From: Podarcis pityusensis
Taxonomy: Eukaryota
DNA: 64,000 nucleotides
NCBI GenBank assembly: GCA_964106645.2
Contig: OZ078259.1
Strand: one strand, 5' to 3'
Shown here: piece after piece, positions 3,321 through 63,300 of the stretch
Layout: every line of letters starts with the position of its first letter
How positions within the stretch are numbered: position 1 is the first letter of the stretch
Notes under the pieces: generated by a model
The model's database searches: none
Seen by the model: only the letters and a program-made list of their open reading frames with translations
Told to the model about the DNA's origin: nothing
Translations under genes and position numbers: made by a program

Positions 3321-3558
3321 CAGTGGATGCTAGGGTTGCGAACGTCATCCGTGTGGGATGCACGTTCGCAACCTGCAGTTGTGCGTCTGCGCACACAGGG
3401 GTTGCGATTCGGCGCTTCTGCGCATGCACAAAGTGTGATTTAGCGCTTCTGCGCATGCATGACCGCCGAAACCCAGAAGTAACCCATTCCGGTACTTCCG
3501 GGTTTCAGCGGTCCGTAACCCAAAAAAATGCAACCTGAAGCGTCTGTAACCCGAGGTA
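3321..3558 (+). mobile_element. Tc1/mariner (Tigger/pogo-like) MITE, right end truncated or degraded
   Basis: TA|CAGTGGATGCT start. Repeated (G/T)AACC(T/C)G motifs end in GTAACCCGAGGTA. CpG-rich interior with an internal hairpin. Confidence 0.75.
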
Positions 3559-3805
3559 AATATGTTCTTGGTACAGAGAAGAAGCAGGTGGAAATCCCTT
3601 GACTTGGGCTGGAAAGAGTTACCAAGCTAGGCTCGATATTTGAAATATTTGTGCATACAAAAACCTTTGTTCAAAAAGTTCAAGATGACACTGATTCTTA
3701 TGCCCATCTGTAATTGTGCTGTTTCAGGCTCACCATGTGTCACATACATACATACATACATACATGCTCTTTTAAAACCTATACCAACAGGACTAGGAAG
3801 AGTCT

Positions 3806-5644: not shown

Positions 5645-5869
5645 CAGCGGTACCTCGGGTTACATACGCTTCAGGTTACATACGCTTCAGGTTACAGACT
5701 CCGCTAACCCAGAAATAGTACCTCAGATTAAGAACTTTGCTTCAGGATGAGAACAGAAATTGTGTTCCTGCAGCGTGGCAGCAGCAGGAGGCCCCATTAG
5801 CTAAAGTGGTGCTTCAGGTTAAGAACGGACCTCCAGAATGAATTAAGTACCTAACCTGAGATACCACTG
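5645..5869 (-). mobile_element. Tigger/pogo-like MITE (CAGTGGTACCTC TIR, AACCTGA motif family)
   Basis: TIRs CAGCGGTACCTC / GAGATACCACTG followed by TA. Triple GGTTACA repeat at 16-bp spacing. Homologous to 25429-25667 and 63062-63300. Confidence 0.85.
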
Positions 5870-25428: not shown

Positions 25429-25667
25429 CAGTGGTACCTCTAGTAATGAACTTAATTCATTCCGGAGGTCCATTCTTAACCTGAAACTGTTCTTAACTAG
25501 AGGTGTTCTTTCGCTAATGTGGCCTCTTGCTGCTGCTATGCTGCCGGCACACAATTTCTGTTCTCATCCTGGGGCAAAGTTCTCAACTTGAGGTAACCCT
25601 TCCAGGTTAGCGGTTTGTAACCTGAAGCGTTTGTAACCTGAGGCATTTGTAACTCGAGGTACCACGG
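25429..25667 (+). mobile_element. Tigger/pogo-like MITE (AACCTGA motif family)
   Basis: TA|CAGTGGTACCTC ... GAGGTACCACGG|TA, with three TTTGTAAC(C/T)(T/C)GA repeats at the right end. Confidence 0.9.
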
Positions 25668-40510: not shown

Positions 40511-42175
40511 TCATAGCCCATGTTTTCTCTTCTAATGTTCCTCTATCTTTAAACTGGATTTGGACTGGACAGCCCTTCAAATAAAAGACTCCTTCTAGTA
40601 GAGTCCTGTGCAGTGTACAGCAGGGTATCTGGCCACTTTTTACATCCAAACTTGTCTTCAACAATTCTGTTGTGGACTGGAGATTAACTTTTTTCATTCC
40701 TTCTAATCCAGAAATAGAAGTCCTACTGATTTAAGGTATGCCACCTTTAAAACACACATATACACATGCCCCAAGTGACATATCAAATTAACAGCTTAAG
40801 AATTTCACGAACTATTTCAATAATATCTCATTTCAATAGCATATCAAACATTAAAGAATTAGCCAAAAGCTCAAAGCAGCCACAGAAATAGCACAAGCTG
40901 AATTAAATGAGCCAAATTTAAATATGAAACCAGTAATATAAAATACACAAATTTTTAAATGCAGGTATGTGAGTATACAGAGATGGGCTTATTACAGAGT
41001 ATACAGAGATGGGCTTATTATTGCTGCTCTTTTCATGGGAAGAGAAACTTCATCGTTTATATTTCAGGAGACAGGCATAGTCTCCTATCCCTGCTTTGCT
41101 GCTGCATTGCACCTCTGAATAAATGTACTTTTTTAAAAATCTGGAATGCAGCTTGGAATGAACAACTGCCCAGATTCTTGGAAATACCCAGTGTGTGTTT
41201 AATTTTGCAGTTTCAGTTTTGAAGTGCAACAACAGCCCTAGGAGTTATGAAAATAAGTCGGAGCCTCGAGTGCTGAAAAGTGCCACTTGTCGGCTTATGG
41301 AGCATTTAGTTGGACGTGCTTATGCCATACAGATTCCCAGCCCTGGCAAAGAGTTTAGCACTCATATTTCATTTTGCAGCTTGAATAGGACTGTATTTTC
41401 ACAGAAGGAGGAGAGAGAGAGAGTGAGAGAGAAAGGAAAAAAACCAGACTCAAATCCTTTCTATTCCTGCCAGGAAAGCAGAGGTGACATTTAACACTCA
41501 TATGTAGTATTTTCCCCCGTTGAGTTTAAATAGAATTCTTTGTTAATAGACAAGTAAGTGTTAAGCTCCTAATATTTCCACCATGCCAAAATAGTTCAAG
41601 TTCGTCATTTTACAAAACAAAGTAGTTCATTTCAATTTCATCCAAACAAACATTTTATTAATAAAAGGTTCATTTTTAAAAACATGTGATAAAGTGACTA
41701 AGTGTCTGCAGCAGCAGCAACAACACCTATGTTTCTGTGTAAAATGCCTAGAGCATTGCCTCTACGTTTTGCTTTCTAACTTTTTATATAGATGAACGAG
41801 TTGAATGGAAGCACTGCCAAGGGCACACACCCTTTAACTTCAACTTTAAGACTGTAGGAACATACTTGTTTCCTTCCCAGTTTAGTTCACTTTAGAGTTT
41901 GGGAGCAGTTATGAAATAATCACCAGTGCAATGGAACACATGCAATAGACCTCTGATTGAATGTGAGTATTTTGGATTTTTTAATTAGGATGTGAGTTGA
42001 ACAGCTATAATTAAAAGTTTGTCAGTGGTTTAGTTTTTTAAGTGCGCTCTTCAAGGATTTAACTTGGTCATAAAATTGTGACTGTGTTTGTGTGTCAGAG
42101 AGGGGTGGGATGAGATAATAATGCTTGATGTCCCTGCACTCAGCCTCCATGCATTCATCTGAACCAAACTCCATA

Positions 42176-43360
42176 CAGTGGTGCCTCGCAAGACGAAATT
42201 AATTCGTTCCGCAAGTCTCTTCGTCTTGCGAGTTTTTCGTCTTGCGATGCACGGTTTCCCATAGGAATGCATTGAAAATCAATTAATGCGTTCCTAGGGA
42301 AACCGCCTTCAGACCAGGTCCGGGGACAGTCTGTCCCCGGACCTCTTCTGAAGGCTGGGGGGGGGGGACAAGGGCTTTTCTTCCCACCCCCAGCATTTTA
42401 AAAAACCCCAGGACAGCGGAGGACTTCTCCGCTGTCCGGGCGATCTTAAAATGCTGGCGGGCGGCATTTTAAAATCGCCCCGGACAGCGGAGGACTTCTC
42501 CGCTGTCCGGGGCGATTTAAAAGCCCCTGGGAAGGCAGGCAGGGGGGACAAAGACTTTCGCCCCCCGCCCGCCTTCAGAAGGTGTTCCCGCCCCCCGCCC
42601 CGCTTCGGAGCAGCGTTCCGAAGCGGTGCGGCTGGGGCAGGTGTTCCCGCCCCCCGCCCCGCTTCGGAACAGCGTTCCGAAGCGGTGCGGCTGGGGCAGG
42701 TGTTCCCGCCCCCCCGCCCCGCTTCGGAACAGCGTTCCGAAGTGGGGCGGCTGGGGCAGGTGTTCCCGGCCCCCCCGCCCCGCTTCGGAACAGCGTTTTA
42801 AAATGCTGGGGGTCGGGAGCGAAGCGTTCGCTCCCGACCCCCAGCATTTTAAAATCTCCCCGGGACACGGGGAGATTTTAAAATGCTGGGGGTCGGCACC
42901 CCCAGCATTTTAAAATCTCCCCGGGACAGGGGGAGATTTTAAAATGCTGGGGGTCGGCAGCGAACGCTTCGCTCCCGACCCCCAGCATTTTAAAATCTCC
43001 CCGGGACAGCAGAGACTTCTCTGCTGTCCCGGGGAGATTTTAAAATGCTGGGGGTCGGCAGCGAACGCTTCGCTCCCGCCCGCCAGCATTTTAAGATCGC
43101 CCGGGGCAGGCGGGGGGGGGAGGCAGGCGGGGGGGAGCAAAGACTTTTGCCCCCCGCCGGCCTTCAGAAGAGGTCCTCTTCTGAAGGCCGGCTGTGGGCG
43201 AAAGTCTTTGCTCCCGACCGCCAGCATTTCCCTATGGGCTTTCGTCTTGCGATGCAAGCCCATAGGGAAATTCGTCTTGCGAAGCGCCTCCAAAACAGAA
43301 AACCCTTTCGTCTTGCGGGTTTTCCGTCTTGCGAGGCATTCGTCTTGCGGGGTACCACTG
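42176..43360 (+). mobile_element. Young Tigger/pogo-like non-autonomous transposon with a palindromic, tandem-repeat interior (CGTCTTGCG motif family)
   Basis: TA TSDs. TIR CAGTGGT(G/A)CC(T/C)CGCAAGACGAA. Eight CGTCTTGCG motifs near the ends. CpG undepleted. Confidence 0.92.
42581..42797. repeat. ~59-60-bp GC-rich minisatellite (about 3.6 copies), each unit with a CTTCGGAAC-agc-GTTCCGAAG hairpin
   Basis: Directly visible tandem units starting at ~42581, 42640, 42699 and 42759. Confidence 0.9.
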
Positions 43361-43586
43361 TACATGTTGCATGGAGGCAGGTTCTGTACATGTGTTTCAA
43401 TGTATATATGGTGATTGGGAACAGTGCCAGAAATTTCTCCCCTCTCTGTACATTTAATTCTACATTGTGTGAACTATTCTAGGTTGTGTTTATGATGTTG
43501 CGAATACATACACTGCCTGCATATTCAGTGGAATTCAGCCCAGTGCCAGACACTCCAAATGGGAGTGGGGCACTGGGGAAAAAATA

Positions 43587-43915
43587 CTGGATTGGCCCGA
43601 ATATAAGCCACACTCCCCCCCCCCTGTGAAAAGTTAACGTGCAGCTTATATTTGGAGCCAGGCACCGCCACTGGCTTGGGGAGCAGGGTGCCGAGCACTG
43701 GCCACCCCCAGTGTGGTAGTGCCAGGAGGCAGGTGTGCAGCGCGCTCAGAGCCGAGTGCCGGCACCGGTTTGGGGAGCAGGGCAATGCACGCCGGCCACC
43801 CCCCACCCCCTGTTCAGGGCAGTAGTGCCAGGAGGTGAGCCACACCCGCAAATAAGCCTTGAATTTTAAAGGTGTGGCTTATTTGCAGGTGCAGCTTATA
43901 GTTGGGTCAATATGG
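43587..43915. mobile_element. Tc2/pogo-like MITE
   Basis: TA|CTGGATTGGCCCGAATATAAGCC ... GCTTATAGTTGGGTCAATATGG|TA, with repeated GCTTAT subterminal motifs. Confidence 0.75.
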
Positions 43916-46141
43916 TATCAAAATATGGGATGGGAATTTTTTGGTCAGTCCCCTTAATTCCCTATGCTTTGGTAGGCTGTCACTTGGGACCTAACCAGTG
44001 AAACTCCCTACCAATAGAGGTTCAGCAGGAACCATCCCTCTGTCCCTTCAGACAATACAATTTTTCTGTATTAAGAGAAAGCTGCCTGTATTGCAATATG
44101 CAGTTATGGGTAAAGAGAAGACTGATCCTCATGAAACATTTGGAATACCTGGCCACAGAGGAGGCTGGTCTATCAGGGCAATTGGGACACTACTCCACCA
44201 GCCTTAGTCTGACTTCAACCAGTTCCTCATTTGCCTGCTTTCCTACTTAACAAACTTTCAGACTGCTCCTTCTTAATCTCAGTGTTGTCTTGTAGAACTC
44301 AGCAGGAGGGAAGAGGGAGACAAAATAAGAAGCAGTTGGCTCTGCCTGTCATTGGCTTTAGCCCCATCAACAGTTGAGCTTCTTGCTTCCGCCCTACCAG
44401 TCTCAATGGGCACCAGTCACTACTTGATGCCTTGGAGACCTCTTTAAATTTCACCCCAGCCTGATGCAGGTGGTTGGTTGACCCTGAAGGCGAGATCAAC
44501 CCTTTGGGACAGTCTCTTTGGGAGTGGAATGCAGATAAAAATCATTGGAATATATATGATAGAATGATTTCTGGCTATTCTGCTTTTTAACTATCAATTG
44601 GAAGTGAAACAGACTTTTGAGTTTTGTTTTTAAGTTACTGTGGGCCGTGCTGATGACAGTGATATGCACCTGGAACAACCAATGGATAATCAGTGTATGG
44701 TAGGGACTTAGTTATTTATTTTTCTGTTACAGTTTATGATCCTGCTCACATTATTCCATTTTAATATTGAATTTGACCCATTGTCTTTGATTAATTCCGG
44801 TTTGCTCTTTTTTAATGATGTCATGTTTTGGTATATATTTTCTGAGCTGCTTCGGGCATTGTTGACAATAGAAAATCAGCATATATGCTACACTAAACTG
44901 CACTGAGTTAAAAAACACACACACCCAAACCTTCTTGCAACTACTAACATAAATTTATGAGACAGATTCGTTCTCTGTGAAACATGAAGAATCCCACATA
45001 ATCCTATGATGAACAGTTCCTGGTTGTGCATGGTCCTGAGGATTATGGGATGGATAGCAGACAAGGATCCTGAACCTTTAAATGGCTTGGCATCCTCAAA
45101 TGGTGTCCATCCATGCCTCTTTAAATTGCTTTCAATATTGAAAAGACCGGTTAAAAATCAAATTATTTAAAGATATTTGGTCACTAGTATAAAATAAAAT
45201 GTTCAGTTTAATAGCCCTATTACAATAGCATTAAGGCCATTAAAACACTCCAGAGTATGTTTTAGGACTCCATTAATACACAGAGACCAGTTAGCCGGAT
45301 AGTTGGATTGCAGCCTTTTGCCTGCCAGTACACCCAAGGTGTGGATTAATTAAGCCATAAAATATGCCCAGTCATATCTAAATGGTACCAATGAACCCAG
45401 TATGAGGCTCTTATGCCTTATTTTAAGAGGTTAAAGTGTAATGAAGCGGTCTGAGTATATTGTGAATTTATTGAACATTTTTTAAAGAAAAGAAAAAAAG
45501 AAATAGTGAATGAGGAGGAGAGAAAAGTTAGCAATTTCAGAAAGATATCGATTTTGCCTTTTATCTTAATGAAAACTTATTTTATCCAATGCATCAAGCT
45601 GCATTGTACTTAACTACAAAGCTGGAAGAGTACGGGGGTATCTGTTATATGTAATGGGTGTGTGTGTGTGATGATGTGGGAATGTGAGTTATGGCCTGAA
45701 ACCCTGGAGACATGCTGCCAGTCACTGAAGATCATACTGTGCTAGATAGAACAATGATCTGGCATGGTATAAGGCATATTCTTATGCTATTATGGCCATA
45801 TTCAGCCATAGTGGCTGAGTGTTGAGTTAGGAAATAAAAGATCTACTGTCAAGTTTCTGTTCAGTAGGAATTCTAGATGGCTTAGGGAAGGGCTGAGAAA
45901 TTTCTTTTATTGCAGGTGTTAATATGTCAAGGGCTGGATGTGGGTCATACATGGGCCGGCAGCTGATGTTGCATGGAGTCAAATGAAGAAGTAGACAGTG
46001 GGGAACCCTTAAGGGGGAACCCTTTTCTCTCTTTCTCTTATTGCTGTCTCTTTTACTCTTACTCTCTCCTTTCCCCCCCTGCCATCCTTTCTTATCTTTC
46101 CCTCCCAGTGTGCTGCAAGAGAAGGAACAGATGTTTCTTAC

Positions 46142-63061: not shown

Positions 63062-63300
63062 CAGTGGTACCTCGAGCTACAAAAGCCTCAGGTTACAAAC
63101 GCTTCAGGTTGCAAACTCCGCTAACTTGGAAGAGTTACCTCAAGTTGAGAACTTTGCCCCAGGATGAGAACAGAAATCATGTGCCGGGTGTAGCGGCAGC
63201 AAGAGGCCCCATTAGCGAAAGCACGCCTCTAGTTAAGAACAGTTTCAGGTTAAGAATGGACCTCCAGAATGAATTAAGTTCATAACTAGAAGTACCACTG
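63062..63300 (-). mobile_element. Tigger/pogo-like MITE (AACCTGA motif family)
   Basis: TA|CAGTGGTACCTC ... AAGTACCACTG|TG. Homologous to 5645-5869 and 25429-25667. Confidence 0.9.

Follow-up and report, generated by a model that had tools for sequence, protein, structure and literature searches.

The region between positions 42176 and 43360 of the window (the whole 64,000-nucleotide stretch of DNA that was analysed) is a young, gene-less, non-autonomous Tigger (pogo) DNA transposon of 1185 bp with TA on both sides, and the hairpin-rich tract at 42300-43270 is part of its interior. Comparison with sister copies from the same genome (1.5 Gb in 336 contigs) indicated that this chain of hairpins was likely built by occasional template switches with backward copying, and that it has likely been resized mostly by direct slips between repeats.

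The element and its autonomous partner

The TA target-site duplication occupies 42174-42175 on the left and, as read from the sequence, 43361-43362 on the right. Both flanks showed TA in 175 of 176 family copies, and the empty sites in the public runs X1 and X2 omit 1187 bases. Sequence comparison of the 22-bp terminal inverted repeats (left 42176-42197, plus strand; right 43339-43360) showed 20 of 22 identical positions. Both ends are common to an autonomous Tigger. The left end (42176-42299, minus strand), which contains subterminal TTCGTCTTGCG repeats, is its 3' end and matches copy L233 over 124 bp at 91%, while the right end (43240-43360, minus strand), with subterminal repeats and the right inverted repeat, is its 5' end (122 bp at 90% to L233). 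The transposase is read in the direction opposite to the window strand. Only the first 124 and last 122 bp are common to the partner copy, and the interior is unrelated to it. The TA duplication, the inverted repeats and the ends common to an intact Tigger bear out the earlier description of this region as the interior of a DNA transposon. We interpret the long open frames that cover the interior as a side effect of its GC-rich repeats.

The autonomous partner (L180) codes for 567 amino acids with the domains CENP-B_N, HTH_Tnp_Tc5 and DDE_1 and a DD36D triad (spacing 36, inside the DD29-36D range of such partners), and Tigger as defined in the available text of PMC7386202 matches this protein. 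Among the best 30 DDE_1 loci of the genome, 24 had the same terminus, and 14 of these 24 had a full frame about 94-99% alike to that of L180. At least 15 full-length intact frames of 566-567 aa (L180 and the 14 others) are thus present, and the transposase may, judged from these frames, still be active. Dozens more open frames of 575-583 aa were seen among 150 scored DDE_1 matches. The window family shares with the Tigger family, as far as the available parts of PMC7386202 and PMC9219625 describe it, the TA duplication, a 22-bp inverted repeat (inside the 8-33 bp range of PMC9219625), a partner of about 2.8 kb or more, the DD36D triad and the same three partner domains. It differs in that the window element is non-autonomous with an interior unlike its partner, and in its at least 15 full frames, compared to a vertebrate maximum of about eight given in PMC9219625. 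The name Tigger fits the domains, the spacing and the host group on which it rests, pogoR having the same domains and overlapping spacings.

Sequence outside the arrays differed from the majority by 0.43% per site in 104 alignable copies, which two linked end positions divide into two sub-lineages. Among public contigs the site was empty in runs X1 and X2, each of them bridged with 255 bases on the shorter side. In run X17, which carries the same organism label as X1, contigs run from each flank into the element and both junctions are present. The empty site in X1 implies that the window insertion still segregates or is very recent. A copy on a small contig (L031) was considered as the possible second allele of a copy on a chromosome and rejected, since no counterpart of its flank was found. 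An older repeat fragment with high coverage in public contigs adjoins the element at 43585-43917, and its end resembles the end of another MITE family seen at L029.

An assembly artefact is highly improbable as the source of the array. In its favour, none of the public contigs spans the element, all of them ending within it. The window copy's private base at 42627 occurred in no X17 contig examined, to which no weight was given since contigs drop rare variants. X17 may moreover be the assembly's source sample, so that it is not independent support for the interior. Against an artefact, more than 100 loci show these modules flanked by proper ends and TA duplications, public runs contain interior pieces and both junctions, and the junctions have a microhomology bias. 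With the modules found at that many independent loci, and both insertion junctions in X17, misassembly is unlikely.

The hairpin interior and its variation among copies

In the inverted-repeat reading, the interior of the window copy opens with a hairpin at 42305-42355, in which GCCTTCAGA and TCTGAAGGC enclose a B-type core. The left block at 42356-42579 contains diverged A- and B-type hairpins (42366-42522) with TTTTAAAA linkers and is common to several subfamilies with different right halves. The hairpin minisatellite at 42580-42795 (plus strand; repeat tract measured at 42580-42797) has 3.7 copies of a 59-60-bp unit, and two of its units in the window copy carry the same substitution, which is absent from all other copies examined. 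The A-B array at 42796-43096 comprises an A module (42804-42846), a short B (42855-42875), a short A (42884-42907), a second short B (42916-42936), a second full A (42945-42987), a full B (42996-43037) and a third full A (43046-43088), all linked by TTTTAAAA. The left half of this array is in reverse orientation, and a direct 61-bp duplication lies within it at 42837-42958. The right block (43097-43235) was read as a G-rich tract and a hairpin with 58-bp arms centred on GCCTTCAGAAGAGGTCCTCTTCTGAAGGC; GCCTTCAGA hairpins recur at 43160-43188 and, together with the one at 42305-42355, bracket both sides. Module positions, linkers, bracketing hairpins and the 60-bp minisatellite were all present where the first-pass annotation had put them. 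G4-like tracts were also seen.

The earlier statement that almost every base lies in an inverted repeat holds for the A-B array, in which the share of bases in exact 8-mer inverted repeats was 0.97 at any distance and 0.79 within 60 nt, compared to a mean of 0.11 and a maximum of 0.31 in 200 dinucleotide shuffles. It is looser for the whole interior, with 0.80 (shuffles 0.30, maximum 0.42) and 0.59 within 60 nt, the latter share averaging 0.065 in the rest of the window. The 60-bp repeat reached just 0.35-0.36, against a shuffle maximum of 0.28-0.35. Predicted DNA folding of the A-B array was -170 kcal/mol versus -50 for shuffles. Several modules had further been described as having lost exactly their hairpin tips, which is wrong, the deletions being asymmetric. 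Among 32 shortened module types in 111 copies the whole loop was removed in 22 and the deletion was symmetric in 2, and in the three shortened modules of the window copy the left arm still has 13-15 nt and the right 7-10 nt. We draw no general left-right bias from these deletions.

We examined 111, later 112, complete sister copies; L029, L052/L115, L111, L168 and the autonomous L180, for which both ends were not in the retrieved stretch, were left out of the counts. Lengths in the 111 copies ranged from 567 to 2251 bp, and their comparison gave 100 module strings (77 layouts without point changes), so that interiors are not fixed, in line with the rearrangement proposed earlier. The 60-bp repeat varied between 0 and 19 units and the A-B array between 0 and 17 modules, with a correlation of 0.15 between the two. 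In the longest copy (L105, G000:C2:89663300-89667350; 2251 bp) the 60-bp repeat runs to 18.6 units, which form a higher-order pattern.

Genome-wide, the first 30 bases plus TA had 7079 exact matches, and 154 exact right-hand junctions of the window subfamily indicate at least 154 copies of it. The inner end motif gave 1362 matches, and the variant leading into the hairpin interior was found in 54 of the first 100 listed; we estimate about 700-900 hairpin-interior elements in the genome. Forty consecutive copies on contig 1 comprised 30 short ones (269-357 bp), 5 with a GC-rich hairpin interior, 2 internal deletions of the autonomous element, 1 with apparently captured DNA, 1 autonomous and 1 with a damaged end. 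Elements of about 0.24 kb in the window had earlier been taken for the scaffold relatives of this element. They instead belong to a sister family with other subterminal repeats, the family's own short forms being those of 269-357 bp, and none of them gave a match to the element. The sister family is represented by older MITEs of 0.23-0.24 kb with a similar inverted repeat at 3321-3560, 5645-5869, 25429-25667 and 63062-63298. Short copies among L153-L189 form one subfamily with an internal variable 8-18-bp TTAGCGGC-type repeat, so that even short forms have variable interiors.

Forty further hairpin-interior copies of contig 1 (40 of 45 listed) represented 9 types of interior, and a common left block was joined to several different right halves across subfamilies, from which we infer a probable mosaic exchange between copies. 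One copy (L182, G000:C1:5595150-5597650) has the same Tigger ends around about 700 bp of DNA that is GC-rich and not repetitive. Motifs resembling splice donors occur in it, and it may be a captured gene fragment as in Pack-TIRs. Foreign pieces of about 170 and 280 bp lie inside hairpins B and A of L035 and L051, respectively. The piece in L035 has a 17-bp target duplication, and that in L051 begins with a short-repeat tail, presumably of CR1 type. Beyond the truncated element at L029 lies a MITE of another family, whose likewise GC-rich, hairpin-like interior suggests that such interiors are not limited to the Tigger family of the window.

Genome searches with interior pieces found only family members among the loci checked, and an old, diverged host source is possible. 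Best-match samples were used to look for arrays free of termini, and there were none at 60 loci: all 30 minisatellite loci (the best 30 of 90 matches) and all 30 A-B loci lay inside elements. Eight loci seemingly without a terminus were resolved, six as wrong-strand matches of the palindromic pattern with both ends visible and two as L105. No escape into free satellite was thus seen, and the earlier portrayal of the element as a generator of palindromic minisatellites applies inside the element and not outside it, all 60 loci lying between termini.

Backward copying, direct slips and their timing

Small asymmetries mark the orientation of each hairpin, and both orientations were seen, derived variants included. 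Exact reverse complements of derived variants were found for the short B of 21 bp (56 forward, 7 reverse), for the A module with a 5-nt loss (14 and 2) and for the A variant m11 (5 and 2). Array polarity in 111 copies was reverse-then-forward in 75, forward only in 19 and reverse only in 1, and 1 was without a readable array. Since most arrays read reverse-then-forward, the typical array is one large imperfect palindrome. An extra polarity switch was present in 15 of the 111 arrays, in 12 of these 15 from one single-site variant, its mirror image and a deletion that likely derives from it. The left run of L066 mirrors, save for one point change, a four-module run that is forward elsewhere. Among related copies checked, L263, L273 and L179 contain a hairpin with 28-42-bp arms that is absent from the window copy, and in L263 and L273 it mirrors a stretch that is single in the window copy.

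Long GC-rich units compared with their own reverse complement scored 0.70-0.91, with shuffle maxima of 0.49-0.60. A 144-bp AT-rich duplication of the same family showed no self-complementarity above shuffles (0.38 vs 0.39), and the palindromicity of the 44-bp unit of subfamily R3 was likewise no higher than in shuffles (0.57 vs a maximum of 0.59). Among the TTCRGA hairpin variants present in at least three copies (22 variants), 26 cells were mirrored and 93% pair, compared to 82% (maximum 89%) in a control that ignores relatedness and in which right arms were dealt among variants. Private arm changes in these hairpins were one-sided by 60 to 0, and by 36 to 1 in the inner-B set; the sole mirrored private change, in L091, was rejected as two CpG-type changes.

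Selection for pairing would mirror arm changes as well, if hairpins were kept because they aid the element's movement or yield small RNAs. This fits the mirroring of shared and not of private arm changes as well as the multiplication of hairpin interiors in several subfamilies. We nevertheless consider such selection improbable, as 30 of 40 family members are short and without hairpin interiors, copies exist in which most of the array is lost (L003, L037, L145), and birth by mirror copying accounts for the pairing without selection. In an Rfam search of the interior none of 69 matches reached the gathering score, and the weak miRNA-type matches fell on both strands, as for any long hairpin. 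A host function is not needed for the array and there was no sign of one.

Rare events were defined as those found in fewer than three of 112 copies. Among them were 261 single substitutions, 123 of which were at CpG, as well as 14 double ones and 24 indels of one base. Direct junctions numbered 45, of which 42 were distinct and 44 lay in the interior; there were also 13 complex junctions, 4 events with an inverted score and 2 insertions of foreign DNA. A gain or loss of units through perfect repeats leaves no junction and is not included in the 45. Microhomology of at least 2 nt was found at 80% of direct junctions, compared to 18% for random breakpoints. About four inverted events were clear: a loop flip in L050, 21 nt in L129, 10 nt in L136 and 15 nt in L102/L121. 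In the last case, half a B module has given way to a patch copied in reverse from the right end of the element itself, and microhomology flanks this patch on either side. Events in L073, L100, L124 and L127 look inverted and have direct explanations too, and they were not counted as clear.

Template switches are reported to both create and repair hairpins (PMC5453318; bioRxiv 10.1101/2021.04.15.439925, in the parts available), and short fold-back inversions at breaks have been described in yeast (PMC11724301, available part). Loop inversion is argued in the accessible text of PMC5453318 to need an inter-strand switch, which makes fold-back too narrow a word. Reverse-complement modules, mirrored arm changes and inverted patches indicate that backward copying acted, and to this extent the fold-back template switching put forward in the first-pass annotation stands. 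As the main engine of growth and shrinkage it does not, with rare junctions about ten times more often direct than inverted. The stronger version of that proposal, which makes fold-back switching in gap repair the chief and continuing cause of module gain and loss, draws on the reverse-complement modules with one polarity switch, on the fresh long hairpins in related subfamilies and on the 15-nt patch from the element's own end. It is quite unlikely given the 45 rare direct junctions against about four clear inverted events and the asymmetry of module deletions, as well as the orientation of the 60-bp units (215 forward and 2 reverse at one marker, 250 and 0 at the other). No private mutation was mirrored at a distance within the window subfamily. 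Copy-specific mutations were instead duplicated head-to-tail, with private k-mers repeated in this way in 8 of 112 copies, window copy included, and private substitutions duplicated within one copy in 6 copies of the subfamily.

One or a few ancestral events may have given rise to the mirrored left arm. Linked-end sub-lineages, and mirrored variants mostly reachable by direct slips from one long palindrome, mean that few founder events may suffice. A rival reading is ordinary minisatellite instability in place, with slippage and unequal exchange after insertion, no part for the transposase, and backward copying building the founders only. Head-to-tail duplication of private substitutions inside single copies, that of the window included, and arrays reaching 19 units speak for it, as does the transposition-independent route reported for most single-copy Pack-TIRs (PMC8277862, available text). 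This remains a doubtful explanation in view of the existence of copy-specific inverted patches and of the relation between junctions and substitutions. Copies with 0-1 rare substitutions had 0.69 rare junctions each and those with 4 or more had 0.52, and the 12 copies without substitutions showed 11 layouts. Rare substitutions and rare junctions per copy were correlated with a rho of -0.08, which lies in the lower tail of a clock-like simulation fitted to the spread that was observed (P about 0.04 at an age spread CV2 of 0.1, range 0.001-0.09; a weak, post-hoc test).

For the reading that we consider likely, in which occasional backward copying made the chain and direct slips did most of the resizing, the following course might be envisaged. 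The element retains about 120 bp of each end of an intact autonomous Tigger around an unrelated interior, as observed. During single-strand copying of the interior, the nascent strand would now and then copy the opposite sense, as the mirrored sequence suggests, with a new perfect hairpin, a flipped loop or a mirrored run of modules as the outcome. A stretch x between two hairpin centres could in this way become x x' x x' (x' being its reverse complement), at once a tandem repeat and a palindrome. Far more commonly, to judge from the junctions, synthesis would stall at a hairpin and restart at a direct repeat or at 2-5 nt of microhomology, by which units would be added or dropped or stems cut into. 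Least certain is the timing: much of the change probably occurs in repair synthesis tied to transposition, new insertions often being born with a new layout, and some duplication would come after a copy-specific mutation.

That junctions do not rise with substitutions gives a modest lean to change at or near transposition, and private substitutions duplicated inside one copy fit change after insertion. On balance we hold it slightly the more probable case that transposition-linked repair is the main moment of change; the more specific timing proposed earlier, during gap repair after excision, is possible. It may further be speculated, with some reserve, that the Tigger family is a palindrome factory, in which repair tied to each jump switches templates, so that fresh insertions start with a novel hairpin layout, repeated mirror copying makes self-complementary minisatellites, and interiors are swapped between subfamilies.

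Comparison with known elements and significance

The window family has the features of a MITE, namely no coding capacity, high copy number, conserved ends and a variable repeat number, and it represents no novel kind of mobile element. Variable internal repeats are already known from other MITEs (miDNA4, Xmix/Xstir, DTC84), and template switching in elements with terminal inverted repeats from Pack-TIRs. miDNA4 of Xenopus tropicalis (Tc1/mariner) and Xmix/Xstir are likewise non-autonomous elements with terminal inverted repeats and an internal repeat in variable copy number, for which short direct repeats have been proposed as the driver of gains and losses. As the available parts of PMC12628747 and PMC9659126 describe them, they contain one captured monomer head-to-tail, which can escape as a satellite. 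The window family by contrast has several arrays, palindromic units and a polarity change, and 0 of 60 loci lay outside the element; a single head-to-tail orientation is true of its 60-bp unit and false for the A-B array. DTC84 of the clam Donax trunculus likewise has an ordered internal array with every element unique, and a palindrome in each repeat has been proposed as a hotspot (PMC3879986). According to the accessible text of that paper all repeats share one orientation and the palindrome makes up 12 nt of a longer unit, whereas the unit of the window family is nearly wholly palindromic and reverse modules occur.

Template-switch mutations (PMC5453318; bioRxiv 10.1101/2021.04.15.439925) and the fold-back model for the Angel MITE (PMC12628747) offer a parallel in that perfect inverted repeats are created, loops are inverted and substitutions are mirrored with no need for selection. 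In the portions of these sources available, such changes concern scattered single events or duplication of a whole element, compared to iterated arrays within a transposon family here. Template switching with about 2 nt of microhomology inside elements with terminal inverted repeats, followed by more transposition, is likewise described for Pack-TIRs, gap-filling and FoSTeST (PMC8277862, available text). Pack-TIRs capture host DNA, while the template in the window family was mostly the element itself. The evenly spaced, alternating palindromic units with linkers resemble bacterial BIMEs (PMC2817692) in layout only. BIME units go with tyrosine transposases in the available description, whereas the present array is carried within a DDE element, without independent dispersal of its units. 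The likeness to BIMEs proposed in the first-pass annotation is therefore apt for the architecture and for nothing beyond it, the host genome being one of 1.5 Gb and the partner a DDE transposase.

A Zootoca element, Zv817, has been described as similar to a lamprey Mariner (PMC10058329, available part). No such lizard element was found described in the literature outside Repbase, Dfam entries and most subscription journals, and within the same scope there was no account of near-all-hairpin interiors with self-complementary units and a polarity switch.

Because they are so rare and scattered, the events that first give rise to palindromes and minisatellites are difficult to observe. Hundreds of near-identical recent copies with the same modules make slips, flips and mirror copies countable against point mutations, and a first count in 112 copies gave 261 single substitutions, 45 direct junctions and about four clear inverted events. 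The family could therefore serve as a natural test bed for the origin of palindromes. Whether remodelling takes place at the jump or afterwards bears on the origins of MITEs and Pack elements. In practical terms, such elements break short-read assemblies and can pass for microRNA precursors. If the reading as a palindrome factory were true, the about 700-900 young insertions would be independent replicates for measuring how templates are switched in the germ line of a vertebrate, and other families of this genome with terminal inverted repeats would be undergoing the same process.
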